Shown: positions 2,464 through 29,142, numbered from the stretch's first letter. The stretch is 56,371 nucleotides of DNA from Oscillospiraceae bacterium (GCA_017847995.1 JAGAPB010000024.1:1-56371), one strand, 5' to 3'. A program made the numbers and translations. Notes: generated by a model from the sequence alone, not told the origin.

Positions 2464-4452
2464 TCAAAGCTTCGGAATCCGCATGATAAAAACACTGCCT
2501 TTTCCTTTTTGGGAGTCCACTTCCACAGTACCGCCATGTTCCAGCGTGATAGTTCGAACCAGAAACAGCCCCAGACCATCTCCGCTTCCGTCAGGACGAG
2601 TGGTAAATCCCCGGTCAAAAACATAGGGTAGATCCTCCGGAGCGATTCCCACACCAGTATCTGCGACAGAGATTACAGCTTTCCCCTTTTCCTCCCGTAA
2701 CGAAAGAGTGATTATTCCATCCTCCGGCGTAAAAGAAAGCGCATTGTAACAGAGGTTTTCCAAAGCGGAACAAAGTCGATCTGTATTTCCTGAAACTGAC
2801 AGGTTTTCTTTCGGCAGATGGAGTTCGAATGATTGTCCATACAGTTCTACATCCGGTCGGTTATCCTCATAAAATCGGTGCAGAAGGTCATTTAAGCAGA
2901 TGGATTCATATTGGAAAACGCCTCGCTCTCCACGGGAAAATCCCTGAAGCAAACCAAAACGATCCTCCATTGTAACAACCCGTTCTGACAGGGCGTCCAG
3001 ATATCCTGTGGTTTCCCCGTCCAGAGCCACTCCGCCGCCTCTCACCAGTTCTGTGTAACTGCGTACAGCGGTAAGGGGATTTTTTAAATCATGGATAAGA
3101 TTTGCCAGAAGTTCTTTTCTTTCAGACAACAGGGTTTCCAGATACTGTGTTTTTTTGTCCACCTCCTCCTGCAGATGTTCGGTCAGCCTCAGGTTTTCCG
3201 CAGCCATTTCTCTGCCCCGACAGACCATCAGCGCGGAGAAAATGACGACCAGCAAAAACGCGCCGTATTCCTCCGGCCATGCCCCGCAGACAGGTTCAAA
3301 GCGGTTGATGGACAGCACCGCCCAGAGCTGGGAGACGCCGAAGAGGACGGCCCCCGCCAACTGCAGGCGCTGGAACCGCGCTCCGTTCAGCAGGCCGCTA
3401 AAGGAAACGCCAACCAGCCAGAAGGAATAGAACAGCTTAAAAAGCGTGGTTGCCACGCCGTATCCATTGATTAGCAGGGGTGCGTGTGGTAAAATAAAGA
3501 GCGGAAACAACGCGGTCGCCGCCGCGAAAAAGACGCAGGCGGGCAGTACCGCTTTTTGAAAAAGAGCGCCTTTCGCCCTGCCGGAAAGCGACGCCGCGAT
3601 CCATGCGGCGCAGAGCAGGATCACGCCTGCGGCCATATCCTCCAGCGCGTAGAGCAGCCGCACAGAGGGTACGCCCAGCATCCGCCAGAACGGATAGCTG
3701 ACCCGGACGGCAAAGGCGGCGCAGAGGACGCCGAACCAAAGGGCGGTTTTGTCCCTGTGAGGACGCCCAAACAGCCAAAGTGCCAGATTGGAAAGGGCTA
3801 CCGCTGCCGCACCAAAGCAGAGGACGCCGTAAACCGCCATCCGCAGCGCGATCATGCGCGCAATGGCGTCGGGGGTTCCCACCGCGGGCGGGTAATAGAG
3901 CCCGCCGTAATAGTGGTCATGGTTGGCGGCCTGTATGATGATCTCGGTGTCTCCGTCCGCCTCAAAGGTGTAAACGGTATCCCGGATATGGGCAAGGTAA
4001 GGCTCCACCGAGCCGGTTTCTCCCATGAGCTCCCCGCCGATATACACCCGGCTGGCGGAGGGGATCTCCGGCAGGAAAAGAGATAGCCGCACCGCTTCGC
4101 CGGGGTTTGTCAGTACCATGCGGTAGGTTGCCACCCCATAGGGAGTGCCCAGCGCGTCGGAGAAATTGGGATACTGACCGGCGTAGATGTGCTCCCGCGG
4201 AGCCTTGCCAGTAGTGAATTCCTCCGGGGCAAGCAGTTGGCCGGGATAATACTCCCAGCCGTCCACCAGAAAACGCGGGGAACCGGTCTGGACGGCTTCC
4301 AGCCGGCTTCGCCCTTCCCCCGCAGGCAGCGCGGCGGCATATTTGTTATCCACGGCATACAGCCACGCAAAGGCTGCGCCGCAGAGCAGCACCAGCGCGA
4401 GGATGAGGCTGCCGCCCTTTAAAATCTGCTTTTTCAAGAAATCACCTCCCAT
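2464..4452 (-). CDS. Sensor histidine kinase, 7TMR-DISM-like (extracytoplasmic domain + ~7 TM + HisKA/HATPase_c)
   Basis: It has a signal-anchor and a ~200-aa outside domain (LVDGWEYYPGQLL), followed by multiple hydrophobic helices. Kinase motifs are the H-box LIHDLKNPLTAV, N-box CYNALSFTP and G-boxes DTGVGI / GDGLGLFLV. An alternative TTG start at 4437 sits behind GGAGGTGA. Confidence 0.85.
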   Translation of the reverse strand: MGGDFLKKQILKGGSLILALVLLCGAAFAWLYAVDNKYAAALPAGEGRSRLEAVQTGSPRFLVDGWEYYPGQLLAPEEFTTGKAPREHIYAGQYPNFSDALGTPYGVATYRMVLTNPGEAVRLSLFLPEIPSASRVYIGGELMGETGSVEPYLAHIRDTVYTFEADGDTEIIIQAANHDHYYGGLYYPPAVGTPDAIARMIALRMAVYGVLCFGAAAVALSNLALWLFGRPHRDKTALWFGVLCAAFAVRVSYPFWRMLGVPSVRLLYALEDMAAGVILLCAAWIAASLSGRAKGALFQKAVLPACVFFAAATALFPLFILPHAPLLINGYGVATTLFKLFYSFWLVGVSFSGLLNGARFQRLQLAGAVLFGVSQLWAVLSINRFEPVCGAWPEEYGAFLLVVIFSALMVCRGREMAAENLRLTEHLQEEVDKKTQYLETLLSERKELLANLIHDLKNPLTAVRSYTELVRGGGVALDGETTGYLDALSERVVTMEDRFGLLQGFSRGERGVFQYESICLNDLLHRFYEDNRPDVELYGQSFELHLPKENLSVSGNTDRLCSALENLCYNALSFTPEDGIITLSLREEKGKAVISVADTGVGIAPEDLPYVFDRGFTTRPDGSGDGLGLFLVRTITLEHGGTVEVDSQKGKGSVFIMRIPKL

Positions 4453-4476: not shown

Positions 4477-6195
4477 ATGTTTTTGATGCAATACCGCTCT
4501 GTGGCCGCACTTATCATTGCGGTTTTGCTGCTGTTTTGCCAGCTTCCGGTCTGTGCGCAGGCCAGCGACGGGCTGACCATCGGCACTTCTCAGGCCTTGG
4601 GGAATGTTATCCGTCAGGATGAAACATATCCGTCCGAACAGGATACAGAGCCGTCGGAAGAACCGGCTCCCTCCGGATATGCTCCGCTGGATGTTCTGTC
4701 CGCCGATCACCAGCCTGACGCGCCGGTAGAGATCACACTGACGCAAAACTGGGTCATTGAGGATGCCCGGGGACTGATCACTTTGAACCCACAGATGTCC
4801 TCCTTTACCCCGGAGGACATTGCGGGGATGCTGGGATTTCCGGGCATCTCGCAACCGGTCACCATCTATACAAACGGGTTTCAAATTATAATCAAAGACG
4901 GCGGCTCGCTACTTTTGCAGGAATGGGACGCGGGCAGCGCGCAGCTCTGTGTTGAGGGCGAACACCCGGACGGCCTATTCCGGGTGGAAGGCTGCGGAAC
5001 GCTGGAACTTCATCAGGTATATGTCAAAACCTCCGGCACGGCGGTCATGCTGTGCGAGGACGCAAGCTATACATGGAGCAACGCCAACGAACGGGATTAT
5101 CCCGAACCGGTCGCAGTAGGAATAAAGGGATTTGAAGCGTTGGAGCTGTCCTCCTCTCCCAAACCGCTGCGTGTCTATGACGACACTCCGTGGTCGGACG
5201 AGCTTGCCGCAGAGCACCAGCCCGTTCTGTCGGTTTATTGCGGAGTAGATGGAGTGAGGGAAGAATTTCCGCAGGAACTGAAAGTGGTCTGGGATACTTC
5301 CTCCCAGGCGGAATCCCTTGCGGCACGGCAGGACTGTGTGCTGACAGGGACGCTGTATGATGAAAACGATCAGCCGGTGGAGAGCCGGTTTATCCCGGAG
5401 TTGCAGGTGCTTTTCCGCCAGCGCAGCCCGGTGGAGATCACAAAGGCCGCCTTTGAGCAGACCGGCGCGGGCAACTGGTTCGGGGATATCCGCTTTACCG
5501 CGCCTGCCGGTTATGAATCCATCATCCTTGAAGTATCCGAAGATGATGGGGAAAGCTGGTCGGAAGCCGAAGGGAGCGCGGCGGGATGCAAAAGAGGCGA
5601 AGGATACGCCTATTTCTTTGCAAATGACGACCGGTCACGGCTTTACCGCATCGTTGTGGAAGGCGGCCCCAATTCAGGATCGTCCGAAGCGGTAATACTG
5701 CCGGAACCGCAGGACAGCGGAAACTCTGGCAGCGGGAAAAGGCCGGGTAAAGATTCCGGCAGCAGCGATGATGACGACAACAGCAGCGACGGTGATCTGA
5801 GCGGAAACCGCGGCGGCGGCACAGCCATCGACATGCCGGACAGAAATACGGGACCCGACCTGATTAGAAACGAAAGTGAAGAAGCTTCCCGTATGAAGGG
5901 GGAAGAACGGCCGCAAATGCAGAATGGCCATCCCACCTCGGAAGGCTTCCTGCCCGAAAGGCCAAAGGATGAACAGGCGCCTTGCAAGTCCGACGGTGAG
6001 CTGACGGACGCTGCTTCGGCTCCTGCAGACACGGAAGCCAAAGAACAAAGCACCTCAGTCCTGCCAAAGGCCGTGCAGGCAGCTGTCGCTGCTGCGGGCG
6101 TTACCGTCTGTGCCGGTTCGGCCGGTATGGTATGCAGCGCAACGCTGCGGAGCAAGGTTCTGAAATGGGTATTCAGGTTGTTGCGGCGCGGTTAA
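4477..6195 (+). CDS. Secreted/membrane-anchored protein of unknown function
   Basis: 572-aa ORF with an N-terminal signal peptide (AALIIAVLLLFCQLPVCAQA) and an acidic Ser/Gly/Asp-rich low-complexity stretch. The C-terminus has a hydrophobic segment plus a basic tail (RLLRRG). The ATG at 4486 has better RBS spacing (GAAAGGA). No catalytic motif was recognised. Confidence 0.6.
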   Translation: MFLMQYRSVAALIIAVLLLFCQLPVCAQASDGLTIGTSQALGNVIRQDETYPSEQDTEPSEEPAPSGYAPLDVLSADHQPDAPVEITLTQNWVIEDARGLITLNPQMSSFTPEDIAGMLGFPGISQPVTIYTNGFQIIIKDGGSLLLQEWDAGSAQLCVEGEHPDGLFRVEGCGTLELHQVYVKTSGTAVMLCEDASYTWSNANERDYPEPVAVGIKGFEALELSSSPKPLRVYDDTPWSDELAAEHQPVLSVYCGVDGVREEFPQELKVVWDTSSQAESLAARQDCVLTGTLYDENDQPVESRFIPELQVLFRQRSPVEITKAAFEQTGAGNWFGDIRFTAPAGYESIILEVSEDDGESWSEAEGSAAGCKRGEGYAYFFANDDRSRLYRIVVEGGPNSGSSEAVILPEPQDSGNSGSGKRPGKDSGSSDDDDNSSDGDLSGNRGGGTAIDMPDRNTGPDLIRNESEEASRMKGEERPQMQNGHPTSEGFLPERPKDEQAPCKSDGELTDAASAPADTEAKEQSTSVLPKAVQAAVAAAGVTVCAGSAGMVCSATLRSKVLKWVFRLLRRG

Positions 6196-6245: not shown

Positions 6246-6926
6246 TCAATCCTCACCCACAAAGCGGTAGCCTTTTCTCCGCACCGTTTCGATGTAATGG
6301 ATATCGGGACAAAGCTGATCCAGCTTCTGCCGAACTCGCGCCATACAAACCTGTATATTATGGATCCCTTTATTCACGGGGGATTTCCACACCCGGTCAT
6401 AGAGCTGCTCATAGGAGAATACCTGTCCCGGATTTTGCGCCAGAAAGGCCAGAAGATTGAATTCCAAGGTGGAGAACGGGATCGTATTGTTCTGATAGCG
6501 CACCTCTTGCAGTCCAAGGTCGATCTCCAGCAGTCCGAAACGCAGCACCTCGCGGATCTCCTGATTCAATCTGCGCTGGATCCGCAAACGTATCCTAAGC
6601 TCCAATTCCGTCAGCGAATACGGCTTTCCAAGATAGTCGTCGCCGCCTGCCATCAATCCCCGTATACGGTCATCCGTCCGTGCGTAAGCCGACAAAAAGA
6701 TTATGGGGACGCTGCTTATCTCCCGTATCTTCCGGCAAACCGCGATGCCGTCCGCACCGGGCATATCTACATCCAAAACGATAGCGTCCAATGCTGCGGA
6801 GGATGAAATCTTTAGGGCATCGGCGCCATTTTCGGCTGAAATGACCTGATAACCCTGCCTTTTCAAAAAAACAGAGTTGGTTTTTATAATATGAGGGTCA
6901 TCGTCTACTAGCAGGATCCGATACAT
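6246..6926 (-). CDS. OmpR/PhoB-family response regulator
   Basis: REC domain (ILLVDDD, VLDVDMPG, LGKP) plus a winged-helix output (ETVRRKGYRF). The ATG at 6926 is preceded by AAGGAAAGGAAG. The 97 upstream codons of track ORF 6246..7217 are judged non-coding. Confidence 0.85.
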   Translation of the reverse strand: MYRILLVDDDPHIIKTNSVFLKRQGYQVISAENGADALKISSSAALDAIVLDVDMPGADGIAVCRKIREISSVPIIFLSAYARTDDRIRGLMAGGDDYLGKPYSLTELELRIRLRIQRRLNQEIREVLRFGLLEIDLGLQEVRYQNNTIPFSTLEFNLLAFLAQNPGQVFSYEQLYDRVWKSPVNKGIHNIQVCMARVRQKLDQLCPDIHYIETVRRKGYRFVGED

Positions 6927-7128: not shown

Positions 7129-8517
7129 TTACTGAAGGATCCGCCGCCCATAATAACGCAATCCCAGCATGGTGATATCATCAAACTGAGGAGCCGCCCC
7201 AACAAACGTATCCACATCGGCTTTCACGGCTGACAAAAGCGGTTCCGGGTCATGGTCGCCATGAGCGTTCAAAACAGCTGACAGGCGCTCCTCCCCGTAA
7301 AGCTCCAAACCGGTGTCGGTGGCCTCAGTAACACCATCGGTATAAAGGTAGAGAGTGTCACCGGCGGACAGCTTCAGCGTTCCCATTCGGTAGCGGGTTC
7401 CCTCCATACCGGCCAGCACAAATCCGGAACGGCCGCGAAGAAACACAAATTCCCCGCCCGCTTGCCGGAGCAAGGGGGGATTGTGTCCGGCATTCACATA
7501 ACTCAGATGCCCTGTGGACAGCTCCAGAACTCCCATCCACACGGTAACGAATAGCCCTTCGTCATTGGATTCGCACAGCAGCTGGTTTACCTTGGCGAAA
7601 ACGGCGTCCGGCGCAGCTCCCGTCTGTGTGTGATCTTTAATCAATGTTTTGGCAATGACCATGAACAGCGCCGCCGGGACGCCCTTGCCGGAAACATCCG
7701 CGATGACCACTGCCAGATGATCGTCGTCCACCAGAAAGAAATCGTAGAAGTCGCCCCCCACTTCTTTTGCCGGCTCCATGGTTGCGAAGATGTCAAACTC
7801 CTCGCGTTCGGGGAAAGCGGGAAAGATGCAGGGAAGCATTGAGGTCTGGATATGCGTTGCCACAGCCAGCTCCGAAGCGATCTGCTGTTTGTCCATACTG
7901 TCCCTGACCTGTCGTTCCAGCAGCCTCCGGGTGCGATCCGCCAGGGTCGTGCAGACCGTCGTCAGGCCGTACAGGATCAGGCTTCTTGGCAGGATGTAAT
8001 ACAGAACCACCCGGCGGATGGTGTTGAAATTGACCACCCGGGGACCGCTGGTATCAACGGCGTAAAGCAGGTTGCTGTCCCATTCCCCCCAACAGACGCC
8101 GATGAGCAGGGAAATGGCCATGCAGATGACTGAAACAACCAGCAGCCCGCGGGAAAACCGCTTGGAATAGTAATGGGAGCCGAGGAGTATGGGGGCAGGC
8201 CAGGCGAGGATGGCATGTTTGGGAAGCGCCGCTGACAAAAGGGTGATGCCAAGGATACAGCAGAGCAATATGTAAAACTTCATCCGTGGGGAATCTCTGT
8301 CCATCTTCCTCAACAGGATCGTGGGGAGAAGGAACAGCAGAATCCCGCCGGCCCCTGCGATTGCCATAATGACATCCGGGACAATAAAGAGCCCTAAAAT
8401 ATTCAGTATCCAGATGACAGCAATCACCGCCGCAAGGACTCTCATGCACCGGGCGGCATAAAGATTGGCTTCTTTCTCATTCTCCGCAAAGGCTGCGGAG
8501 TAATCCAATTCATTCAT
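7129..8517 (-). CDS. Membrane-bound SpoIIE/PP2C-family protein phosphatase
   Basis: The N-terminal half has about 6 hydrophobic helices. The C-terminal PP2C/SpoIIE domain has the motifs GGDFYDF, VVIADVSGKG, YTDGVTE and DDITML. The track ORF starts at TTG 8544, but the ATG at 8517 is preferred. Confidence 0.85.
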   Translation of the reverse strand: MNELDYSAAFAENEKEANLYAARCMRVLAAVIAVIWILNILGLFIVPDVIMAIAGAGGILLFLLPTILLRKMDRDSPRMKFYILLCCILGITLLSAALPKHAILAWPAPILLGSHYYSKRFSRGLLVVSVICMAISLLIGVCWGEWDSNLLYAVDTSGPRVVNFNTIRRVVLYYILPRSLILYGLTTVCTTLADRTRRLLERQVRDSMDKQQIASELAVATHIQTSMLPCIFPAFPEREEFDIFATMEPAKEVGGDFYDFFLVDDDHLAVVIADVSGKGVPAALFMVIAKTLIKDHTQTGAAPDAVFAKVNQLLCESNDEGLFVTVWMGVLELSTGHLSYVNAGHNPPLLRQAGGEFVFLRGRSGFVLAGMEGTRYRMGTLKLSAGDTLYLYTDGVTEATDTGLELYGEERLSAVLNAHGDHDPEPLLSAVKADVDTFVGAAPQFDDITMLGLRYYGRRILQ

Positions 8518-8555
8518 AGCATCACCATCCTGTTCTGAAACCAAAACATCGTCGT

Positions 8556-8855
8556 TTATTGGATGGTCAGAATGTCGGTAAAGCCGGTGAGCTCAAAAAC
8601 TTCCATAACGGTCTCGTTGGCATTCATCACAACCATTGGACTGTTTTGCTTGTTCATTTGTTTCTGCGCTGCCAGAATAACCCGCAATCCCGCAGAGGAG
8701 ATGTACTCCAGCATCTCCAGATCCAAAACCAGTTCAGTCACATCATACAGCGAAGTCTTTACTTCCGCCTCCAACTGAGGAGCTGTCGTGGTATCGAGAC
8801 GTCCTTCCAGAGCCAGAGTCATGCGGGTGCCTTCCTTGTTTTTCGTGATCGTCAT
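8556..8855 (-). CDS. STAS-domain protein (anti-sigma-factor-antagonist type, SpoIIAA/RsbV-like)
   Basis: It has the conserved phosphorylatable-serine context LEYISSAGLRVIL. The ATG at 8855 is preceded by GGAGGA with 7-nt spacing, whereas the track start at 8870 has no RBS. Confidence 0.85.
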   Translation of the reverse strand: MTITKNKEGTRMTLALEGRLDTTTAPQLEAEVKTSLYDVTELVLDLEMLEYISSAGLRVILAAQKQMNKQNSPMVVMNANETVMEVFELTGFTDILTIQ

Positions 8856-8879
8856 GTCAGTATCCTCCATTTTTTATTT

Positions 8880-9494
8880 TTAATTGTTTTCAGGTGCCTT
8901 GGCTTTGAATGTTTTAAAGACGGTAATAGCTATCCTCTCGCTGCGCAGACCTATGCGGACGTCATCCGCCAGGCGCAGCAGGATAGACGCTTCCAGTTCA
9001 TCCCATTGGGCGGCCTTCTTTTCCCGTGCAAGACGGTTGCGCATCCTGACCAGCGACCACTCCTCCGGGATATGGCTTGCAAATCCGGCCCCAACGTAAA
9101 CATCCTGATCCGCCTGCCGGGTGCCCTTGCTGTACCAGTCGGCCACCATGCGCAGTTTGCCGACAACGCCCTGGTAGAACGCGTTTTCGCCGCTGGAGGA
9201 TGCGCCCAGCAGTCGTTGCTGCGCCGTTTCACCCACAGGGAAGGTTCTGGCTGAAAGCTGAAGCCGATATTCCTCATTCTCCTGTTCAATGACAAAAGAG
9301 CCGTCCTTCACCTCCGTCACTCCATTGAGTACGCCCAGCAGTTCTTCGGTCAGGAGACGCAGGTGTAAGGCCTGTTTGCCTGTCAAACCGGTTTCTTTTG
9401 CAAACCGGTCTGCTTCCCGCAGAGCAGCCGATGTAGCCCCCCGGCTGCCATCAATGGGGCAGATTGCAGATGTACTCACATAGATCCCCTCCAT
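8880..9494 (-). CDS. Hypothetical protein with a degenerate RsbW/GHKL-like domain
   Basis: 204-aa ORF. The helix ALHLRLLTEELLGVL and the C-terminal SILLRLADDV...RIAITVFK align by eye with the N-box helix and C-terminal strand region of the adjacent RsbW-like protein. The N-box Asn and Gly-rich ATP-lid are absent. Confidence 0.5.
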   Translation of the reverse strand: MEGIYVSTSAICPIDGSRGATSAALREADRFAKETGLTGKQALHLRLLTEELLGVLNGVTEVKDGSFVIEQENEEYRLQLSARTFPVGETAQQRLLGASSSGENAFYQGVVGKLRMVADWYSKGTRQADQDVYVGAGFASHIPEEWSLVRMRNRLAREKKAAQWDELEASILLRLADDVRIGLRSERIAITVFKTFKAKAPENN

Positions 9495-9499
9495 TTCTT

Positions 9500-9910
9500 T
9501 TAGTTGATCTCTTTTGTTATGGTAAGAATATTTCTGCCGTCTTCATAGGTATAAGCCACATGATCCATCGTCTTTTTTACGAGCAGGATACCCAATCCCC
9601 CAACTCCGCGTTTTTCGGCTGAAAGGGTTGTATCTGTATCCGGCTTTTCCAGAGGATTAAAAGGGTATCCCTGATCCATAAATCGGATCGTGACAGTAGA
9701 GGGGTCGCCATCCACATCCACGCAGATCTCAGCTTCCCCTGTTTTGGGATGATAGGCATAGCTGGAAATGTTGACAAAAATCTCCTCCACAGCCAGGGCA
9801 ACCTGCATTTGGACTTTTACAGGACAGCCGCTCTGCTCCAGATGTTTTTGGATAAAAGCATTGACAGACTCCAATTCCTCTGCCTTCGCGTGAACAACCA
9901 TTTTTTCCAT
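9500..9910 (-). CDS. RsbW/SpoIIAB-like serine protein kinase (HATPase_c_2-type anti-sigma regulatory factor)
   Basis: N-box ALAVEEIFVNISSYAY, D-x-G region FMDQGYPFNPL and G-box RGVGGLGILLVKK. The ATG at 9910 is preceded by ACAGGAGGCGAGTC. Confidence 0.75.
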   Translation of the reverse strand: MEKMVVHAKAEELESVNAFIQKHLEQSGCPVKVQMQVALAVEEIFVNISSYAYHPKTGEAEICVDVDGDPSTVTIRFMDQGYPFNPLEKPDTDTTLSAEKRGVGGLGILLVKKTMDHVAYTYEDGRNILTITKEIN

Positions 9911-10069
9911 GACTCGCCTCCTGTACATATCAAAATAGAAGTAACGCATTGGCCCCCTCTCTTTCGCATTCGGGATGGCTCCTCTGCGCAGCCTTCCGGG
10001 ACCCTTTTGCTAAACTTTTCGAGAGACAAACACGCCTCCCAAACGGATATAGTTTTATATATGCAGGCG

Positions 10070-11662
10070 CTATCTGCTCCGCAAAATATCCAAATCCAAC
10101 CGTTCCAAAGAACCGGACAGTTCTACCAGCTCCATCTGAAGACAAAGAAGGTTGACAGCAGTACCGAAGAACTCCAAAATGACGTTCAACGCAACGGTGA
10201 TGGCAACAGCCTCGATCGGGATGTCCAGCTGAAGGAACAGCATGGTATAGCAGGTCAGTCCACCGCCGGGAACCGGAGGCGCCGCTACCGCAAGAACCAC
10301 CGTGATTAACAGGGCGCTGATCAACCATGCGGGAGAGATCGCCACTTCATAGATTTCCGCCATGCACAGCCCGGCGGACAGGAAGATCACAGCTGCTCCC
10401 GGCATAAAAATCACCTGGCCCAGCGGTACGCCGAAGTTTACAACCTGCCGGTTGATGCCGAGCCGCTTTTCGCAGCATTCCACATTGGTGGAAAAGGCGG
10501 CGGCGGACGAGGCGGTACTCAGGCCAATCAAAAATGTAGGGAGTATTTTTTTCAAAAGGATTGGCAGACGTACCTTCTTTCGGATGCAGACCATGGTTAC
10601 ATAGACAGCCGAAACCAGCAAATGCCCCAAAAGCATGATAGGAAGCAGCTTGTAGGACTGCAGCAAAACAGAAAGGCTTCCGCTCAGAATCATACTGAAA
10701 ATGCTGCAGAAAACGAAAAATGGGATCAGGTTGCTGACTGCTTCCATGATGAGCTGTGCAACGGAATTCAACTGCTCAACAAAGGTGGAAACTACAGCTG
10801 CTTTGTTTCCCATCACCAGCATCGCCAATCCGATCAAAACGGCGACAAAGATGATTTGCAGGGGATTCGCCTCGGTAAAGGGGGTAATTAGGTTATCTGG
10901 GACGATATCCAAAACCATCCGCAGCAGCTCAGACGGATTAAAGGAACTGCCGCCACTGGCTGTCAGAGGGAAAAACAAGAGCATAGCAGCGCCTGCCAGA
11001 AGTGTAAGCAGAACGGACATCATAAGGAAACGCAGAACCATCCGCTTCCCGATTCGGCTCAATGTGGCGGTGTCTCCAATGCTGCAAACGCCCCAAGCTA
11101 CCGAAAGAAAGATCATTGGGCCGGCGATCGCGGTGAGCAGCCCCATAAATGTTTGGAACAGCGGCGCAACCAGTCCATCGGTCAAAAAAGCGCGTAAGCT
11201 TTCTGGAAGCAGCCGGCACAGCAGACCGCACGCAATAGCCAGACCTATCGAAATCGCCAACAGCAGGATTTGGGGCGGCTTTCGCTTTTTGGGAGTAAAT
11301 ACGACCAGATTTACGCCATTTTTGTACTGCCATACAGGGGCGATCCCCATTCCCGCGAGGATGCTCTGCAGAACCTCACCGCCCTCTTCGCTGATTTTAA
11401 GAGGGTCAAGCCGGGGCCCTGGGAAAGACAGCTCTACCCGCGGTCTCCCCAACCGTATCAGACATTTCAGAATACCTTCTCCGTTTTGGCCCAGCGTCTG
11501 CTGATAAAAAAGGAGGGTCTCCTCAACGGCCAGACGAATGCGCAGAATATCCTTTCTGTCTACGCCGGAATCGGCTAAAAAACGCTCTGTGATCTCTACA
11601 GCAGTATTGATGCTTTCATTGGTCAGTAAAACCGATGGGCAGCCTGCCGTTGTTTTTATCAT
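10070..11662 (-). CDS. Dicarboxylate/amino acid:cation symporter (SDF/DAACS family) with a ~125-aa N-terminal degenerate RsbW-like domain
   Basis: SDF motifs STASSAAAFSTN and PPVPGGG, with many TM helices. Residues 1-125 (FLADSGVDRKDILRIRLAVEETLLFY ... LSFPGPRLDPL ... YKNGVNLVVFTPKK) align by eye with the 9500..9910 protein. RBS is CAAGGAGGAAAATT. Confidence 0.8.
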   Translation of the reverse strand: MIKTTAGCPSVLLTNESINTAVEITERFLADSGVDRKDILRIRLAVEETLLFYQQTLGQNGEGILKCLIRLGRPRVELSFPGPRLDPLKISEEGGEVLQSILAGMGIAPVWQYKNGVNLVVFTPKKRKPPQILLLAISIGLAIACGLLCRLLPESLRAFLTDGLVAPLFQTFMGLLTAIAGPMIFLSVAWGVCSIGDTATLSRIGKRMVLRFLMMSVLLTLLAGAAMLLFFPLTASGGSSFNPSELLRMVLDIVPDNLITPFTEANPLQIIFVAVLIGLAMLVMGNKAAVVSTFVEQLNSVAQLIMEAVSNLIPFFVFCSIFSMILSGSLSVLLQSYKLLPIMLLGHLLVSAVYVTMVCIRKKVRLPILLKKILPTFLIGLSTASSAAAFSTNVECCEKRLGINRQVVNFGVPLGQVIFMPGAAVIFLSAGLCMAEIYEVAISPAWLISALLITVVLAVAAPPVPGGGLTCYTMLFLQLDIPIEAVAITVALNVILEFFGTAVNLLCLQMELVELSGSLERLDLDILRSR

Positions 11663-11809
11663 AATTTTCCTCCTTGTTCCGGTGCGGAAACGGTTTGTCT
11701 GACGCCTCCGGAAGCTTTACTTCATTCCATCGATGCAAAGGCAGGATTTGTACCGTCCTTTGGCAGCGCTGCTGCAGAAGGTCAGGTGTTTTTTCGACGT
11801 CACAGGGGA

Positions 11810-12907
11810 TCACTCCAGCCTTAGTTTCATGGTCAACTCGTTTGTAAAGGGCTGTGTATGGGCTTTTCCATAAGAGATCTCTTCGCACAATCCCTTGACC
11901 AGCAGAATGGACAGATCATCCCCCTCTGCCAACGGGTCAAAGGCTGGGCCAGTGTAACGGATGGATATACGGGTATCGTTATTTTCCTCGTTGTATTCCA
12001 CCATCGTATGGATCTGAAATTCCTTTTCCATCCGGGGCAAGAGAGCCTGAATGCAGAGTTCCTCGAAGATGCTCTGCATCCGGCAGATCGTCTTCTGTCC
12101 CATTTCATGCTTGCGGCCAAACTGCTCGATCTGGCTATTAATGCCGATAAAATCATATCCATGGGAATCAATGACAGTTTCAAACACTTTCAGGCGCTGG
12201 ATAAACTGCCGGGTGCGTTCCCGCCGGGGATTGTCAAAAATCTGCTCTGGGGTACCGTCTTCATAGATCTCGCCCTGATCCATATAAAACACACGGGTGG
12301 AAACATCCCGGGCAAATTTCATTTCGTGGGTGACGATCATCATGGTCAGCCCTTGCCGGGCCAGATTGCGGATGACCGACAAAACTTCTCCCACCATAGT
12401 CGGGTCGAGGGCGGAGGTCGGTTCATCGAAAAGGACGATCTCCGGATCCATGGCGAGGGTGCGGGCGATTGCGGCCCTCTGCTTCTGTCCACCCGAAAGT
12501 TCATCCGGGAAGGCCAGAGCCTTGTCTCTCAGCCCCACCATCTGCAACAGCTCCATTCCCCTGTCGCAGGCGTCCTGCCGACTATGGCCCAAAAGGGAAA
12601 CCGGTCCTGTCATAATATTTTCAATGATGTTCATGTGGTTGAAGAGATTAAAGGACTGGAACACCATACCCATCTTGCGCCGCAGAAGATGCACCTTGCA
12701 TTTCGGATCGGTGATTGCCTGCCCATCGATGAAGATCTCGCCCGAGGTAGGCGTTTCCAGCAGGTTCAGGCATCGCAGCAGGGTGGATTTCCCAGTACCG
12801 GAAGGGCCGATGATGGAGATGACCTCCCCCTGTCCGATCTCTGCGCTCACATCCTTCAGCGGCGTGACATTGGGATACTCTTTTCTCAGATGTCGGATCG
12901 AAATCAC
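11810..12907 (-). CDS. Amino-acid ABC transporter ATP-binding protein (GlnQ-like) with a ~120-aa C-terminal degenerate RsbW-like domain
   Basis: Walker A GPSGTGKST, signature LSGGQKQR and Walker B VLFDEPTSALD. The C-terminal extension (ICRMQSIFEELCIQAL ... ISIRYTGPAFDPL ... LSILLVKGL ... NELTMKLRLE) resembles the RsbW-like protein. There is a 4-nt start/stop overlap with the upstream permease gene. Confidence 0.85.
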   Translation of the reverse strand: MISIRHLRKEYPNVTPLKDVSAEIGQGEVISIIGPSGTGKSTLLRCLNLLETPTSGEIFIDGQAITDPKCKVHLLRRKMGMVFQSFNLFNHMNIIENIMTGPVSLLGHSRQDACDRGMELLQMVGLRDKALAFPDELSGGQKQRAAIARTLAMDPEIVLFDEPTSALDPTMVGEVLSVIRNLARQGLTMMIVTHEMKFARDVSTRVFYMDQGEIYEDGTPEQIFDNPRRERTRQFIQRLKVFETVIDSHGYDFIGINSQIEQFGRKHEMGQKTICRMQSIFEELCIQALLPRMEKEFQIHTMVEYNEENNDTRISIRYTGPAFDPLAEGDDLSILLVKGLCEEISYGKAHTQPFTNELTMKLRLE

Positions 12908-15141
12908 GGCAGCTTCACCCCTTTCACCGTTCTGTTCCTCCGGTCAGGCGTCACCCTGCGTTCAATGGGACGCAGCAGAGAGGTAAGCGCCCATGCAATG
13001 ATAAAATACATAACTGCCGTGCTGATAAGAGGGAAAAATGCCTCATAAGTGCGGCTGCGGATGATATCGCTCATCTTGGTCAGATCCTCAACCGCTATGT
13101 ATCCCACCACAGAGGTCATTTTGATCAGGGAGATAAATTCCCCCTTGAAGACCGGCAGGAACTGCCTCGCCGCCTGGGGCATGACGATCTGGAAGAAGGC
13201 GCGGGATGGGGTAAATCCCAATGCCAGCGCAGCCTCTGTCTGGCCGCGATCCACCGACTGGATGCCAGTGCGGATCATTTCGCACACATAGGCTGCCAGA
13301 TTAAGCCCGAATCCGATGACGGCGACCCAGACGCCGCCCAACCCACTGCCGGAAAATACCAGATAAAACAGGATCATCAGCAGCACTACCATAGGCGTAC
13401 CCTGCAGGATGCGGATATAGGTCTGGGCAAACCCTTTTGCCAAAGAAGAACCGGAGAGCTTCATCATACAAAGCCCAAAGCCGAGAACCGATCCTAAAAT
13501 TGTGGCCGACAGAGAAATGAGAACGGTCGTTTTGACGCCCTCCACGATGAGTTTCCAGCGGCTTTCCCGGACAAAGGTTTTTTCAAAGCTCTCAGCCAGA
13601 GAGGTAAAGAAGCCCTTTTCCGGCTCTATCCCCTTGACCATCATTACCGTCCCTCCGGAATAGTCCGGATCGGAAAAATACACGCTTTCGGCCCGTTCCT
13701 CTGTTACAGCGATGCAGGAGGCGGCGATGTTGTACCGTTCCCCCAGACCGGGAATGATTGCAGCAAAGTCCATGTTGTGGATCTCCAGATCATAGCCGTA
13801 GGCTGCGCAGAAACGAGCCGCAATGTCGATTTCATATCCTACGATCTGCCCGTTTGCCAGATAGGAAAAGGGGGGATTCTCCGTGTTGGTCGCCAAATGG
13901 AGGGTACCGTTTTCCCCGGTAAGCCCGGACAGATCGATCACTTTTTTCTCTTCCTCTGGGCCGAACCAGAGACTGTCGAGTTCTGCCAGTGTACCGTCCG
14001 CCCGGAGTCCTGTCAGAAATTCATTCATCTCATCCCGAAGCCTTCCCCCTTCAGGGCTTTTGGGAAAAGCGAAGGCGTAGTCGGTCTCGCTCATCAGCTG
14101 GGGGATATGGGTCACGGCAGGATACTCCAGCTCCATGTAGCGGGCCACCGGCTCGTCCACCATAAAAGCGTCCAGCTGGCCGTTGGTTACCGAATAAGCC
14201 ATGTCCGGGATGTTGTTGTAATATAAAAGCGCCCCTTCCGGGAAGGCTTCCTGAGTCAGCGCGTCAAACACCGATCCTGTAAGGATACCTAAGCGGGTAC
14301 CGGGCACTTCCAGCTCCTCCACCGTTTGATATCGCTGGCCATTTTCTTCCGGCCCGCTCCGCACCATTATCACTGTTTCTGAAAGAAGGTATCCATCAGA
14401 AAAGCCCAGCTTCTCCCGCCGCTCGGGTGTGGCGTTGAGGTTAGCCATAATGCAGTCAATGTCGCCGCTCTCCGCCGCCGCAATGATCCCGCCGTAATCG
14501 TATACGCTGATCTCCACATCAGCGTTCAGCCAATGGGCAAACCGGTTGATCAGCTCAATATCGTAACCCGTCAAGGCAGTCCCTTCATAATAGCTGAAGG
14601 GCTGCACCACTCCGGTGGTTCCTACTCTCAGATGATACTTTGGATTTTCCGCTGTCGGAATATCCGGCATGGTGCTGTCGGCGGACCTTACCCAACGGTT
14701 ATACATCTCATCAAGGGTTCCGTCTGTCCGAAGCTCTGCCAAAAATTCGTTGATCTTGCGGGTCAAATCCGGGATCGTTGTTTTGGGCGAAACGCCCACG
14801 GCAATGTCCATGGGCTCCCCAAGCCTTCCGTCCAGCAGCCTGACGCCATCCACCCCACCGGCGATAGCAAAATCTATCATGATGCGGTCGTAGGCATAGG
14901 CGTCCAGTTCCCCTTGCTGGACGGCGGCAAAGCCGGTGACATGATTGCTGAAAAATCTTATCTCCGCTTCGGGAAGATACTGCTCTACGGCAAACATACC
15001 GGCGGAGCCCTCATCGACCCCTATCGTATACGATTTGTCGTTGAGCTGCTCAATCGTTGTTACAGCCCGTTCTGTCCTTGCGGAGCAGCCGCACAGACAG
15101 AGCAACAGCAGACCGGTAAGGATCAGTCCTTGTTTTCTCAT
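12904..15141 (-). CDS. Fused amino-acid ABC substrate-binding lipoprotein / permease (GlnP-like)
   Basis: 745-aa ORF with a lipobox LLCLCGCS. SBP_bac_3-like segments are followed by a C-terminal polar-amino-acid permease domain (RWKLIVEGVKTTVLISLSA ... EAALALGFTP). Confidence 0.85.
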   Translation of the reverse strand: MRKQGLILTGLLLLCLCGCSARTERAVTTIEQLNDKSYTIGVDEGSAGMFAVEQYLPEAEIRFFSNHVTGFAAVQQGELDAYAYDRIMIDFAIAGGVDGVRLLDGRLGEPMDIAVGVSPKTTIPDLTRKINEFLAELRTDGTLDEMYNRWVRSADSTMPDIPTAENPKYHLRVGTTGVVQPFSYYEGTALTGYDIELINRFAHWLNADVEISVYDYGGIIAAAESGDIDCIMANLNATPERREKLGFSDGYLLSETVIMVRSGPEENGQRYQTVEELEVPGTRLGILTGSVFDALTQEAFPEGALLYYNNIPDMAYSVTNGQLDAFMVDEPVARYMELEYPAVTHIPQLMSETDYAFAFPKSPEGGRLRDEMNEFLTGLRADGTLAELDSLWFGPEEEKKVIDLSGLTGENGTLHLATNTENPPFSYLANGQIVGYEIDIAARFCAAYGYDLEIHNMDFAAIIPGLGERYNIAASCIAVTEERAESVYFSDPDYSGGTVMMVKGIEPEKGFFTSLAESFEKTFVRESRWKLIVEGVKTTVLISLSATILGSVLGFGLCMMKLSGSSLAKGFAQTYIRILQGTPMVVLLMILFYLVFSGSGLGGVWVAVIGFGLNLAAYVCEMIRTGIQSVDRGQTEAALALGFTPSRAFFQIVMPQAARQFLPVFKGEFISLIKMTSVVGYIAVEDLTKMSDIIRSRTYEAFFPLISTAVMYFIIAWALTSLLRPIERRVTPDRRNRTVKGVKLP

Positions 15142-19745: not shown

Positions 19746-20025
19746 GGCGGTCTCCTTTGGGGGAAAGCTGGGCTTGCGCCCGCACCACCATTATACAATG
19801 GATGGCGGTCCTCTTTCAACCCAAAGAGGGGCATCCAAAATCCGTACAAAAAGGGGAAGAAACTGACTTGGAAATTTTGTGCAAATTTATGCCGTCATTT
19901 GGCGGGCGAAATCGCCGAAAAACCTTGCAATAAAGGGCCCCAGACAGTATAATAGTACGGGTAAAAATGTGTCTTGCATTTTTCAAATTTGTTGAACCCA
20001 TTCTTATTAACAGGAGATGTTTTAT

Positions 20026-21213
20026 ATGAGAACTGTTGGTACTGTAGTACGCGGTGTTCGTTGCCCCGTCATCCGCCAGGGCGATGACCTGGCCCAGATC
20101 GTTTGCGACAGCATCCTGGCTATGGGTGAAGAACAGAAGGTGGAATTCCACGACCGTGATATCGTTGCAGTGACCGAGGCTGTTGTGGCTCGCGCCCAGG
20201 GCAACTACGCCACCGTGGATGCCATCGCCAAGGATGTGGCCGGCAAATTTGGCACCGACACCATTGGCATGGTTTTCCCCATCACCAGCCGCAACCGTTT
20301 TGCCATTTGCCTGCGCGGCATTGCCAAGGGCGTAAAGAAGATCTATCTGCAGCTCAGCTACCCCTCCGACGAAGTGGGCAACCATCTGTTTGACCCCGAA
20401 CTGATGGACCAGAAGGGCATCAACCCCTATACCGATGTTCTGGATGAAAAGAAGTACCGCGAGCTGTTTGGCTATGAAAAGCACACCTTCACCGGTGTTG
20501 ATTATGTGGAATACTTTGGCGAGCTGATCCGCTCCTGTGGCTGCGAGGTGGAATTTATCTTCTCCAACAAGGTCACCACCATCCTGGATTACACCAAGAA
20601 CATTCTGTGCTGCGACATCCACACCCGCGCTCGCAGCAAGCGTCTGCTGCAGGCCGGCGGCGCCGAAAAGGTGCTCTGCCTCAACGATATTCTCAACACT
20701 TCGGTTGACGGCAACGGCTACAACGAAGCCTATGGCCTGCTGGGCAGCAACAAGGCCACCGAAGACACCGTAAAGCTCTTCCCCCGCGACTGCGGCGCCT
20801 TTGTTGGCCGCGTGCAGGAACTGCTGAAGCAAGCCACCGGCAAGACCATTGAAGTGATGGTTTATGGCGACGGCGCCTTCAAGGACCCCGTGGGCAAGAT
20901 CTGGGAACTGGCCGACCCCGTTGTTTCCCCCGCCTACACCAGTGGCCTGGCCGGCACCCCCAACGAGCTGAAGCTCAAGTACCTGGCCGACAACGACTTT
21001 GCAGGCCTCAGCGGCAAGGAACTGGATGACGCCATCCGCGAAAGCATCCGCAACAAGGACGGCGACCTGAAGGGCAACATGGCCAGCCAGGGCACCACTC
21101 CCCGCCAGCTCACCGACCTGATCGGCTCGCTGTGCGACCTGACCAGCGGCAGCGGCGACAAGGGCACCCCCATCATCTTCATCCAGGGTTACTTTGACAA
21201 CTACTCGATGTAA
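20026..21213 (+). CDS. CofE-like (F420-0:gamma-glutamyl ligase family) protein
   Basis: The N-terminus VRCPVIRQGDDLAQIV...DRDIVAVTEAVVARAQG is typical of the F420_ligase fold. The ATG at 20026 is preferred over 20017, which abuts the RBS AGGAG. Confidence 0.65.
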   Translation: MRTVGTVVRGVRCPVIRQGDDLAQIVCDSILAMGEEQKVEFHDRDIVAVTEAVVARAQGNYATVDAIAKDVAGKFGTDTIGMVFPITSRNRFAICLRGIAKGVKKIYLQLSYPSDEVGNHLFDPELMDQKGINPYTDVLDEKKYRELFGYEKHTFTGVDYVEYFGELIRSCGCEVEFIFSNKVTTILDYTKNILCCDIHTRARSKRLLQAGGAEKVLCLNDILNTSVDGNGYNEAYGLLGSNKATEDTVKLFPRDCGAFVGRVQELLKQATGKTIEVMVYGDGAFKDPVGKIWELADPVVSPAYTSGLAGTPNELKLKYLADNDFAGLSGKELDDAIRESIRNKDGDLKGNMASQGTTPRQLTDLIGSLCDLTSGSGDKGTPIIFIQGYFDNYSM

Positions 21214-21228
21214 AAAACCAAAAACCGG

Positions 21229-21261
21229 CGCCTCCGCACACCACGGTGCGGGGGCGTTTTT
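21229..21261 (+). terminator. Rho-independent terminator
   Basis: Stem cgcctccgcac / gtgcgggggcg (one G-U pair) followed by ttttt. Confidence 0.6.
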
Positions 21262-21542
21262 GCGTTTGCTTTTGCCCGCTAAAGAAGAGGGGAAAAGAAT
21301 ATACACAAATTTGTGCAAGGAATGTCTGTTTTTTGAAAAGTTCCTGTAAAAAAGGGAAAAAATGTGCCGCAAACAGGCTAATTTACTGCAAAATATTGCG
21401 AGAAAACGAGGGATTATGATATTATGTAGGACAGCAAGATTTTTTGCAAAAGGAAATCCTTTGGCAAAATCTCTGCCCGAAAAATCCGCGGCCCAACGCT
21501 GCGGAGAATCCGAATCAAGGATATTTTTAGGAGGAAAAGAAA

Positions 21543-22595
21543 ATGAAGAAACTGCTTGCTATGCTGCTGGCTCTGATCATGGTTCTGTCCATGGCTGCCT
21601 GTGGCGCAAAGGCTCCCGCAGAAGAAGCTCCCGAAGCCGACGCTCCCGAAGCTGAAGCTCCCGTAGAAGAAGCTGTTGAACTGAACATCGTTTCCATCCC
21701 CAAGCTGGTTGGCGTTGCTTGGTTTGACCGCATGGATGTTGGCGGCCAGGAATGGGTTTCCGCCAACGGCGGCACCTTCTACCAGAACGGCCCCTCTACC
21801 GCTGACGCTGCTCTGCAGCTGCAGACCCTGCAGGATGCCATCACCGAAGGCGCTAACGTAATCCACGTTGTTCCCAACTCCACCGAAACCCTGGAAGTTG
21901 CCATGGCTGAAGCCCGTGACGCCGGCATCATCGTGCTGAGCCACGAAGCTCCCGGTGCTGAAAACGTTGACTACGACGTAGAAGCTTTTGAAAACGACGC
22001 TTACGGCGAACACTTCATGAAGATTCTGGCCGAACAGATGGGCGAAGAAGGCGAATACGCCATCATCGTTGGTTCCGTTCAGGCTCAGACCCACGTTGCC
22101 TGGGCTGACGCTGCTGTTGCTTACCAGGAAGCCAACTACCCCAACATGAAGCTGGCCTGCGACTACATCGAATCCGGCGAAGACCATGACACCGCTTACA
22201 ACAAGACCAAGGAAGCTCTGAAGACCTACCCCAACCTGAAGGGTATCATCGGCTGCTCCGTAATCGACCCCGCCGGCGCTGCTTTGGCAGTTGAAGAAGC
22301 TGGCCTGGTTGGCGAAGTTACCGTTATCGGCACTTCCGTTTCCGACGTTGTAGGTTCTTACCTGGAATCCGGCGCTGTTTACATGTTCAGCTCTTGGGAT
22401 ACCTCCGCAACCAGCTATGCTATGTGCGAAGCTTCCAAGATCCTGGCTGAAGGCGGCGAAATCACCACCGGCACCAACCTGGGCGCTGAAGGCTACGAAT
22501 CCGTAACCGTTGACGGCAAGGTTATCTACGGCGCTGCTTGGCTGGACTTCACTGTAGACAACTACAAGGACGATCCCTACCGCACCGCTGAATAA
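21543..22595 (+). CDS. Sugar ABC transporter substrate-binding lipoprotein (RbsB/LsrB-like periplasmic-binding fold)
   Basis: Lipobox LSMAACG, an Ala/Glu/Pro linker, then a Peripla_BP-like sequence. It is the first gene of an ABC operon. RBS is AGGAGGAAAAG. Confidence 0.8.
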   Translation: MKKLLAMLLALIMVLSMAACGAKAPAEEAPEADAPEAEAPVEEAVELNIVSIPKLVGVAWFDRMDVGGQEWVSANGGTFYQNGPSTADAALQLQTLQDAITEGANVIHVVPNSTETLEVAMAEARDAGIIVLSHEAPGAENVDYDVEAFENDAYGEHFMKILAEQMGEEGEYAIIVGSVQAQTHVAWADAAVAYQEANYPNMKLACDYIESGEDHDTAYNKTKEALKTYPNLKGIIGCSVIDPAGAALAVEEAGLVGEVTVIGTSVSDVVGSYLESGAVYMFSSWDTSATSYAMCEASKILAEGGEITTGTNLGAEGYESVTVDGKVIYGAAWLDFTVDNYKDDPYRTAE

Positions 22596-22791
22596 GCTTA
22601 TTCCAACCGAATAACTTTTTCTAAAAGCGACCGAAACAGGCCCGCTGCTCCGGCGGCGGGCCTGTATTTCCATATATTCGACTTTGAAAGATGAGAAGAA
22701 TGTGCCGGCTGCGGCACATGGTTCTGATCCTTTGAGGAACTGCCCGGCAACGGGTTTTTAATCTATTACGGAAGAGGAAGGGGAGACCAAA

Positions 22792-25283: not shown

Positions 25284-25298
25284 GGAGGAGGGAAAAAC

Positions 25299-26297: not shown

Positions 26298-26316
26298 GCG
26301 GAAAGAGGAAACGACT

Positions 26317-27414: not shown

Positions 27415-27486
27415 TGAAAAACAAGGCCTCCTTTTTGCAAGGGAGGCCTTTGCCTTAAAATTCTTCTTTGGAAAGGAAGTTTTGCT

Positions 27487-28962: not shown

Positions 28963-28970
28963 CAAAAGAA

Positions 28971-29004
28971 AGACCCCGTTTTTTGCCGAAAGCGGGGTCT
29001 TTTT
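28971..29004 (+). terminator. Rho-independent terminator of the sugar operon
   Basis: Stem agaccccg / cggggtct followed by tttt. Confidence 0.6.
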
Positions 29005-29142
29005 GCGTCCCAAAGGGCCTTTGCAACCGCCGGTTGCGGAAATTTCCAACACAAATTGATGGAAAGCAACCTCAAAACATGGTATCCTGTAACCAGAAGA
29101 AAACCGGTTGCCTCTTCCAAACCTGTGATGGGAGGAACGAAA

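Follow-up and report, generated by a model that had tools for sequence, protein, structure and literature searches.

Predicted RsbW-fold pseudokinase domains on nutrient transporters beside a partner-switching module of an Oscillospiraceae bacterium

Introduction

Partner switching is the textbook mode of control of sigma factors, and outputs other than sigma factors are known in principle. Here we analyse a stretch of 56,371 nucleotides from an Oscillospiraceae bacterium (GCA_017847995.1 JAGAPB010000024.1:1-56371; 'the window' hereafter means this whole stretch), in which a partner-switching module lies beside an SDF-type symporter and an amino-acid ATP-binding cassette (ABC) importer that carry extra domains predicted to be catalytically dead kinases. 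The core of the module is that of the SpoIIAA/SpoIIAB/SpoIIE and RsbV/RsbW/RsbU systems of Bacillus, namely a STAS protein with a phosphorylatable serine, a GHKL kinase of the HATPase_c_2 family and a PP2C phosphatase, and the extra domains are predicted to share the SpoIIAB/RsbW fold. In contrast to the Bacillus systems, there is no sigma gene in the operon, the putative targets are dead kinase copies on membrane transporters, and the kinase and binding roles appear to be split between separate proteins.

Described non-sigma outputs of partner switching include SiaABCD of Pseudomonas aeruginosa, SypE/SypA of Vibrio fischeri, HsbR/HsbA and BtrUVW. In Anabaena, the partner-switching-like module HenR/All4160 directly regulates an enzyme (2026 preprint 10.64898/2026.04.08.717354); non-transcriptional partner switching is still reported as new, as in this preprint for a single enzyme. 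All these systems likewise apply a phospho-switch based on a STAS or STAS-like protein to a non-sigma target, but none is known to have an RsbW-fold pseudokinase receiver fused to that target or to act on solute transporters.

MlaB, a stand-alone STAS protein, binds to MlaF, an ABC ATPase that requires it; the phospho-site residue lies in the interface, and a phosphomimetic at this site weakens binding (PMC7367683). However, MlaB contacts the nucleotide-binding domain itself, without an RsbW-like domain and without a known kinase or phosphatase, and serves a Gram-negative lipid transporter, unlike the importers described here. SLC26/SulP proteins, too, are secondary transporters with a regulatory domain in the cytoplasm that is itself a partner-switching component, but the arrangement is inverted: there the STAS domain sits on the transporter, whereas here a kinase-fold domain does and the STAS protein is free. 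A review of STAS domains covers only this inverse architecture (PMC8256260). Regulatory domains that likewise follow the nucleotide-binding domain are found in MetN (C2/NIL), MalK, ModC and OpuA (CBS; PMC7673798 for OpuA), but they have ACT, TOBE or CBS folds and not a GHKL fold. Inducer exclusion by EIIA-Glc and the GlnK-AmtB (PII) system resemble our proposal in logic, as a covalently modified small protein docks on several transporters; their chemistry differs from the phosphorylation of a STAS serine by an RsbW kinase that is proposed here. The closest parallel to a division of roles comes from Mycobacterium smegmatis, where of RsbW1, RsbW2 and RsbW3 one only phosphorylates STAS and the others purely bind (PMC7693655). 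These paralogues are soluble, stand-alone proteins that feed SigF, and unlike the domains described here none is on a transporter. Our literature search, in which subscription journals were thinly covered, found no RsbW-like or HATPase_c_2 domain fused to a transporter and no mention of the family of p204, a 204-residue protein of the locus.

Results

A complete switch next to two transporters with extra domains

All coordinates are positions in the window, and families were assigned with Pfam and NCBIfam. The island and the gene that completes its importer contain the following features:

7129..8544, minus strand: membrane PP2C/SpoIIE-type serine phosphatase, 471 residues (Pfam SpoIIE 2.4e-50, residues 273-464)
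7780-8544, minus strand: polytopic membrane domain of the phosphatase, residues 1-255
7132-7779, minus strand: catalytic domain of the phosphatase, residues 256-471
8556..8870, minus strand: single-domain STAS protein, 104 residues (Pfam STAS 3.7e-16; NCBIfam anti-sigma factor antagonist 7.3e-22)
8880..9494, minus strand: p204, 204 residues, of a family absent from Pfam and usually adjacent to STAS (hhalign to SDF_N, N-terminal half)
9500..9949, minus strand: intact RsbW/SpoIIAB-type serine kinase, 149 residues as an open reading frame, domain from about residue 14 (Pfam HATPase_c_2 3.1e-24)
10070..11257, minus strand: SDF/DAACS symporter membrane domain, residues 136-530 including the stop codon (Pfam SDF 8.7e-61)
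11270..11662, minus strand: SDF_N, predicted cytoplasmic RsbW-fold pseudokinase domain, symporter residues 1-131 (model, Foldseek, hhalign)
11810..12193, minus strand: ABC_C, predicted RsbW-fold pseudokinase domain, ATPase residues 239-365 including the stop codon (hhalign homology)
12197..12907, minus strand: GlnQ/TcyN-type polar amino-acid ABC ATPase domain, residues 1-237 (Pfam ABC_tran 2.1e-36; NCBIfam GlnQ 2.3e-88)
12904..15141, minus strand: fused substrate-binding (three SBP_bac_3 stretches) and permease subunit, 745 residues (Pfam SBP_bac_3 1.4e-53, BPD_transp_1 6.5e-22)

The six open reading frames named in a preliminary description of this DNA are all present on the minus strand with the boundaries given there, the whole symporter gene spanning 10070-11662 and the whole ATPase gene 11810-12907. 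The motifs that it quoted were also recovered, YISSAGL in the STAS protein and both EEIFVN and GVGGLG in the kinase. The translated phosphatase contains the metal-binding motifs GGDFYD, ADVSGKG, YTDG and FDDIT. Its first 155 residues hold about four to five hydrophobic segments (28-80, 87-114, 129-155), and the N-terminal domain is kept in 21 related loci. The kinase retains all catalytic motifs (the N-box Asn, the G1 Asp-x-Gly and the G2 GGxG), as do 15 of 15 orthologues. In the STAS protein the phosphorylatable serine stands in Y-I-S-S-A-G-L-R, and the motif Y-[IL]-S-S-[AS]-G-L-R recurs in all of 20 distinct orthologues, which share about 60-70% identity. Such unusually high conservation across lineages, together with the invariant motif, would fit a hub protein on which several partners impose constraints. 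Judged from their sequences, phosphatase, kinase and STAS protein form a complete phosphorylation switch.

Both transporters are longer than the families to which they belong. The SDF profile matches only symporter residues 136-505 (profile positions 6-374 of 387), and this protein shows weak, sub-threshold similarity to the DctA, SstT and GltP models. The GlnQ model was matched over positions 1-239 of 240, yet the score stayed below the cut-off of this equivalog, and no substrate was assigned from the match. The start of the ATPase gene overlaps the stop of the 745-residue binding/permease gene by 4 nt, so that the importer is complete; in many homologues binding protein, permease, ATPase and C-terminal pseudokinase domain form one polypeptide. 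Symporter residues 1-135, ATPase residues 240-365 and the whole of p204 matched no Pfam or NCBIfam family in full-protein scans, and the C-terminal domain of the ATPase had no Pfam match to the NIL, TOBE or CBS regulatory folds. A KKRK stretch precedes the SDF N-terminus. By known topologies, the ends that carry the extra domains (the N-terminus of SDF, the C-terminus of the ABC ATPase and that of the MatE exporters described below) are cytoplasmic.

The extra domains resemble SpoIIAB and RsbW

Pairwise BLAST of the extra domains gave weak similarity, insufficient alone (best E 4e-5 over 49 residues). Queries of the protein database with the domains only returned two or three fragments, and the families were collected with a composite query extended into the neighbouring transporter sequence. 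This query retrieved 72 full-length SDF homologues, all with the N-terminal domain, and about 50 ABC homologues, all with the C-terminal domain. The sole recurrent Pfam family among them was HATPase_c_2, matched by 21 of 30 SDF_N members (best 2.4e-5) and 11 of 31 ABC_C members (best 1.3e-4); two ABC_C-homologous fragments matched it with E 9.6e-4 and 0.25, in a register that agrees with the SDF_N match. When family profiles were compared with hhalign, SDF_N and ABC_C aligned with each other over 100 columns (89%, E 2e-6). A profile of true kinases, built from 15 stand-alone or phosphatase-fused kinases of related loci, aligned with SDF_N over 110 columns (96.4%, E 1.5e-9) and with ABC_C over 98 columns (97.2%, E 3.4e-11), matches far above chance level. 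The corresponding hidden Markov model (HMM) also matches SDF_N domains directly (E down to 9e-7), as well as the C-termini of MatE exporters.

For structure prediction, AlphaFold was given a pooled SDF_N and ABC_C alignment from which true RsbW kinases had purposely been left out. The resulting model of symporter residues 1-131 (pLDDT 86.2, pTM 0.81) has the topology b-a-a-b-b-loop-a-b-b. SpoIIAB, RsbW and mycobacterial UsfX make up all of its 13 best Foldseek matches in the PDB (E 2.5e-5 to 7.6e-4, TM 0.59-0.69; 1tid_A at E 2.5e-5 and TM 0.68); catalytic domains of histidine kinases rank after these, and the SiaB structure 6kko_B is among the weaker matches. Sequence and profile searches against the PDB with SDF_N, ABC_C and p204 gave nothing significant. 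A confident model obtained without kinase sequences, with such a set of top matches, supports the fold proposed for the transporter-borne domains, and SDF_N is best described as a predicted Bergerat-type alpha/beta sandwich of the SpoIIAB/RsbW kind. The fold search thus placed the domain with SpoIIAB/RsbW and not with an unrelated fold, and the earlier claim of an RsbW-like fold on both transporters agrees with profile, structure and motif evidence alike.

Loss of catalytic residues

The catalytic positions were counted in 15 true kinases, 70 SDF_N and 50 ABC_C domains. The N-box Asn, which coordinates Mg-ATP, is present in all 15 kinases, in 26 of the SDF_N domains and in no ABC_C domain, where Gln or Thr takes its place; in the window the site is occupied by Phe52 in SDF_N and by a Gln, ATPase residue 288, in ABC_C. 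The adenine-binding Asp of G1, again found in 15/15 kinases, is absent from every SDF_N (0/70; Val, Ile, Phe or Leu) and every ABC_C domain (0/50; Tyr, Trp or Phe). The GGxG of G2 (15/15 kinases) cannot be aligned in either family. From the G1 Gly to the C-terminal Asn there are 46 residues in the kinases, against a median of 37 in SDF_N and 36 in ABC_C, the ATP-lid segment being about 9-10 residues shorter in both. By contrast, the Glu-Glu pair of the N-box helix, the G1 glycine and the C-terminal Gly/Asn hairpin motif are invariant in all three groups, and conservation across kinases and pseudokinases extends to the N-terminal strand and the C-terminal Y-x-x-G-x-N hairpin. These counts agree with the earlier claim that the transporter-borne copies have lost ATP-binding residues. 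As the G1 Asp and the ATP lid are lost, these domains are predicted to be unable to phosphorylate anything, and on this evidence 'pseudokinase' is the right description of SDF_N and ABC_C.

Recurrence of the module and its fusions in other genomes

Species-representative genomes were scanned with a narrow peptide pattern, a survey biased towards close relatives, the outcome of which is a lower bound. It found 44 loci, mostly in Lachnospiraceae, with some in Oscillospiraceae/Ruminococcaceae and one in a metagenome-assembled genome (MAG) labelled Spirochaetales, and the fusions occur in more than 44 species. The closest loci come from a Bacillota MAG and from Faecousia, and homologues also exist in Phascolarctobacterium. 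Cultivable carriers include Lachnospiraceae bacterium 10-1 and Petralouisia muris. The related loci, designated by L-numbers, were annotated with local HMMs, together with eight Pfam-annotated contigs.

The gene order of the window (ABC fusion, SDF fusion, kinase, in some cases p204, STAS, phosphatase) is found again in L009, L010 and L053. In L011, L012 and L048, an SDF fusion is followed by STAS, by a phosphatase-kinase fusion with a 5TM-LYT sensor and by an ABC fusion. A Lachnospiraceae type consists of kinase, ABC fusion, STAS, a nonribosomal peptide synthetase (NRPS)-like gene, phosphatase and one or two SDF fusions, and the same parts occur in other orders in L001, L003, L004, L007, L011, L015 and others. 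The trio of STAS, PP2C phosphatase and kinase itself recurs in L001, L003, L004, L007, L009, L010, L011, L040, L050, L053 and L054. A further type has a MatE exporter with a C-terminal degenerate domain directly after STAS, whose gene ends 2-20 bp upstream:

L007:11968-13734: MatE fusion
L004:7531-9285: MatE fusion
L054:7660-9411: MatE fusion

Two of these reach the HATPase_c_2 gathering score (34.9 and 27.4 bits), but neither the N-box Asn nor the G2 glycines are left. MatE exporters thus join SDF and ABC proteins as a third class of transporter carrying the dead-kinase domain. The combination of MatE and HATPase_c_2 must also show in domain databases.

Of 22 distinct loci with a STAS gene, 14 have this gene at most 133 bp from, and co-directional with, a gene bearing a pseudokinase domain. 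The carriers of these STAS-adjacent domains are SDF, ABC, MatE and p204 proteins, and one STAS gene typically accompanies several of them. The combination of module and fusions, for which a survey of gene neighbourhoods had been suggested, is thus conserved across many Clostridia.

The sensor part of the phosphatase varies between loci: a polytopic membrane domain in the window, dCache-HAMP in L007 (15525-17153), and 5TM-5TMR_LYT with a C-terminal true kinase in L011 (11892-14705) and also in L012 and L048. The input of the module is modular, whereas its output parts are constant.

One genome can hold several importers of this kind. In L053, a close relative of the window, a second 365-residue ABC ATPase with a C-terminal pseudokinase domain (3050-4147; ABC_C E 5e-17) adjoins CstA and a separate permease and binding protein. 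A 133-residue open reading frame of the same locus was considered as a split-off N-terminal domain and rejected, being an unrelated lipoprotein-like sequence.

The p204 family

An exhaustive search collected 615 representative clusters of p204 homologues, mostly stand-alone proteins of about 195-210 residues. Other forms (P0153, P0264; P0128, P0135 and similar) are tandem duplicates of about 400 residues and, in two members, fusions to the C-terminus of Mbeg1-like alpha/beta-hydrolases. In metagenome loci of at least 8 kb with a p204-family gene, a STAS gene was present in 20 of 29, in most of them directly adjacent, and kinase and phosphatase genes are often near. Because of this linkage and the conservation of the family, p204 is, on sequence grounds, a genuine conserved STAS-linked component.

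The preliminary description had taken p204 for a further copy of the same fold of about 120 residues, which holds for one part of the protein. Residues 17-84 align with residues 14-80 of SDF_N (hhalign 94.9%, E 4.4e-8, with a 132-sequence profile), and the matched part comprises helices 1-2 and strands 2-3, including the Glu-Glu pair. The C-terminal helix and hairpin always fall in the right register without reaching significance (E ~0.02), and an insertion of about 70 residues occupies the position of the ATP lid, so p204 is not a 120-residue copy. Against true kinases the match was only 4.5%, and Pfam HATPase_c_2 was detected in 1 of 70 members. That p204 has the pseudokinase fold is therefore only half-proven. 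An identity as TfuA was rejected, the match (E 0.0087) being below the cut-off and not recurrent in the family. In some p204-family loci, STAS fusions encoded by open reading frames of about 390 residues (L121:7464-8636 and L122:9123-10301) occur as well as STAS proteins of about 98 residues.

Sigma factors

No sigma gene was found in the island, in its flanks or within about 23 kb in a scan of the window. The only sigma-like open reading frame is an extracytoplasmic function (ECF) sigma at 36362-36814, 23.5 kb off, in line with the earlier statement that the nearest sigma gene is about 24 kb away. The preliminary description gave this sigma gene its own anti-sigma partner; the 265-residue open reading frame (36811-37608) that overlaps its stop has no Pfam match and is a plausible candidate for that role by position only.

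In homologous loci, too, a sigma factor proved no regular neighbour. ECF sigmas are limited to 3 of about 49 distinct related loci (L007/L008, L045 and, 8 kb away, L049), and no SigB/SigF-type sigma was seen among them. A sigma gene is lacking from seven of the eight Pfam-annotated loci, and a Pfam scan of 24 non-redundant unannotated open reading frames at most 2.5 kb from module genes, in 19 loci, found only the two known ECF sigmas.

Discussion

On balance, and with moderate confidence, we favour a sigma-independent partner switch whose outputs are the transporters, the STAS protein docking on their pseudokinase domains. In this scheme the membrane phosphatase would sense a signal and dephosphorylate STAS. 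The dead kinase domains would keep the ability of the RsbW family to bind unphosphorylated STAS and so act as receivers; dephospho-STAS would bind several transporters at once through these domains, as well as p204, altering their activity, until the true kinase re-phosphorylates it and resets the system. The retained Glu-Glu pair of the N-box helix may help to reject phospho-STAS electrostatically. The interpretation that accompanied the preliminary description stands as regards the pseudokinase domains on transporters and the lack of a nearby sigma factor; for p204 the fold is established in part only.

Several observations weigh against this scheme. The window SDF_N alone falls below the gathering threshold of Pfam HATPase_c_2 (E 0.025) and the window ABC_C has no match to it, and the SpoIIAB/RsbW fold of ABC_C is deduced through its homology to true kinases and SDF_N. 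In the published SpoIIAB complex the ATP lid reportedly forms part of the surface that contacts STAS; as the lid is shortened in the pseudokinase domains, their contact with STAS may be of another kind or have been lost. Linkage is not obligatory either: in about 14 Lachnospiraceae loci, such as those of Sporofaciens musculi and Lachnospiraceae bacterium 3-1, ABC and SDF fusions adjoin each other and none of the genes for STAS, PP2C and kinase lies within 10 kb; the STAS gene of these genomes may sit elsewhere. Finally, an ECF sigma adjoins the module in two lineages, L007 (8982-9479) and L045 (7449-8030). The two sigmas are related to each other (E 2.9e-47), that of L045 lies directly upstream of phosphatase, kinase and SDF fusion, and the switch might also feed a sigma factor in these lineages.

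The same synteny and fold evidence would fit information flowing in the opposite direction, the transporters being sensors (transceptors) whose pseudokinase domains bind STAS or the true kinase according to the transport cycle. Flux would then be the input, and the output would lie elsewhere, for instance in p204, in an unlinked sigma factor or in the neighbouring two-component system. The ECF sigmas beside the module in L007 and L045 fit such a scheme, p204-family proteins pair with STAS in loci without transporter fusions and could be the real effector, and transporter-based sensing has a precedent in DctA-DcuS, at least as cited in PMC5703999. We nevertheless consider it unlikely, because the phosphatase already has dedicated sensor domains (polytopic membrane, dCache-HAMP, 5TM-LYT), because unrelated transporter classes (two to three SDF, ABC and MatE) per STAS fit a one-to-many output better, and because p204, the sole conserved downstream effector seen, is absent from most fusion loci. 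Quite unlikely, in our view, is a role of the dead domains in oligomerisation or kinase tethering, in which they would pair mutually or with the true RsbW kinase without binding STAS, and so bring ABC ATPase subunits together as dimers or keep the kinase at the membrane. SpoIIAB and RsbW do act as dimers, C-terminal dimerising domains commonly regulate the ATPases of ABC importers (MetN, MalK), and the N-terminal strand and Y-x-x-G-x-N hairpin are common to kinases and pseudokinases; M. smegmatis RsbW3, moreover, acts by binding RsbW1 (PMC7693655). However, SDF transporters are trimeric, which suits an obligate dimer module poorly, STAS and not the kinase is the most tightly linked gene, and the kinase is fused to the phosphatase in many loci.

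The domains might also be GHKL-derived sensors of small molecules that mediate feedback (trans-)inhibition by metabolites, with the partner-switching genes as unrelated neighbours. Ligand-binding domains are known at the C-terminus of ABC importer ATPases (MetN C2, ModC and the CBS domains of OpuA; PMC7673798 for OpuA), and the roughly 14 fusion loci with no module within 10 kb would be expected under this explanation. But the nucleotide pocket is dismantled, the Asp being replaced by bulky hydrophobic or aromatic residues and the lid deleted, and a STAS gene adjoining four carrier types in distant lineages would hardly be a chance neighbour, which makes the explanation very improbable. We give least credence of all to a canonical switch acting on a sigma factor encoded elsewhere, with the fusions incidental. 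Only 56 kb of the genome are visible, and an ECF sigma does lie 23.5 kb away; yet RsbW-type anti-sigmas are normally co-operonic with a SigB/SigF-type sigma, none of this type was found in the eight Pfam-annotated loci or among the flanking open reading frames of 19 module loci, and the RsbW fold on transporters would be left unexplained.

If STAS does dock on the transporters, several of them should be switched through a single serine of one small protein. Nutrient uptake and efflux would thereby come under rapid post-translational control, in a serine-phosphorylation counterpart of inducer exclusion by the phosphotransferase system and of PII signalling. Lachnospiraceae and Oscillospiraceae would then possess a rapid mechanism regulating the uptake of amino acids and dicarboxylates; to our knowledge, post-translational regulation in these families is almost unstudied. 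More tentatively, a single STAS protein could be a diffusible hub in gut and rumen Clostridia, docking on portable pseudo-RsbW receiver domains across many effectors: SDF symporters, amino-acid ABC importers, MatE exporters, stand-alone p204 and Mbeg1-like hydrolases. The dead kinase fold would in that case be a portable STAS-receiver module, as receiver domains are for two-component systems, and the p204 family, with its 615 representative clusters and no Pfam entry, would be assigned a role. At this locus the target is indicated by the genome itself; a domain of the kind that normally binds STAS has been copied, catalytically inactivated and fused to at least three transporter classes in dozens of abundant gut and rumen species.

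Neighbouring genes and accessory functions

A scan of the window for promoters and terminators gave a result no better than that for shuffled sequence. Two kinds of large open reading frames had no Pfam match: five on the minus strand at 19816-29910, of 419-1217 residues, and one of 572 residues on the plus strand at 4477-6195, with a signal-like N-terminus and a hydrophobic C-terminal segment. An AAA_14/DUF4143 ATPase is encoded at 923-2122; another (L003:11666-13027) adjoins the SDF fusion in an unrelated locus, possibly by coincidence.

Downstream of the phosphatase gene lies a regulatory gene:

6246..6926, minus strand: OmpR-type response regulator, 3' of the phosphatase, likely start MYRILLVDD (Pfam Response_reg 5.2e-27, Trans_reg_C 1.3e-19)

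A HisKA/HATPase_c histidine kinase is encoded at 2464-4452. The link of the response regulator to the module is tentative. An OmpR-type response regulator and a histidine kinase also flank the module in two distant loci, L004 (961-3578) and L054 (1222-3827), and such pairs may provide transcriptional control of the same operon.

Accessory genes accompany the module in particular lineages. In Zongyangia-type loci, a GH3-family acyl-acid amido synthetase is encoded between the MatE fusion and the phosphatase (L004:5843-7513; L054:5976-7643). In Lachnospiraceae, a protein of about 154 residues with a cyclic-nucleotide-binding domain is encoded directly downstream of the SDF fusion (L001:11707-12171; L015, L025, L034, L042, L045, L046). 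Also in Lachnospiraceae (L001:2095-8539; L015, L025, L030, L031, L042, L046), a phosphopantetheinyl transferase gene and the NRPS-like gene, of 1411 residues with Condensation, AMP-binding, PP-binding and reductase domains, lie between STAS and phosphatase. NRPS genes of the C-A-T-R type in gut Clostridia make peptide aldehydes, and the tie of this gene to amino-acid import may be functional.

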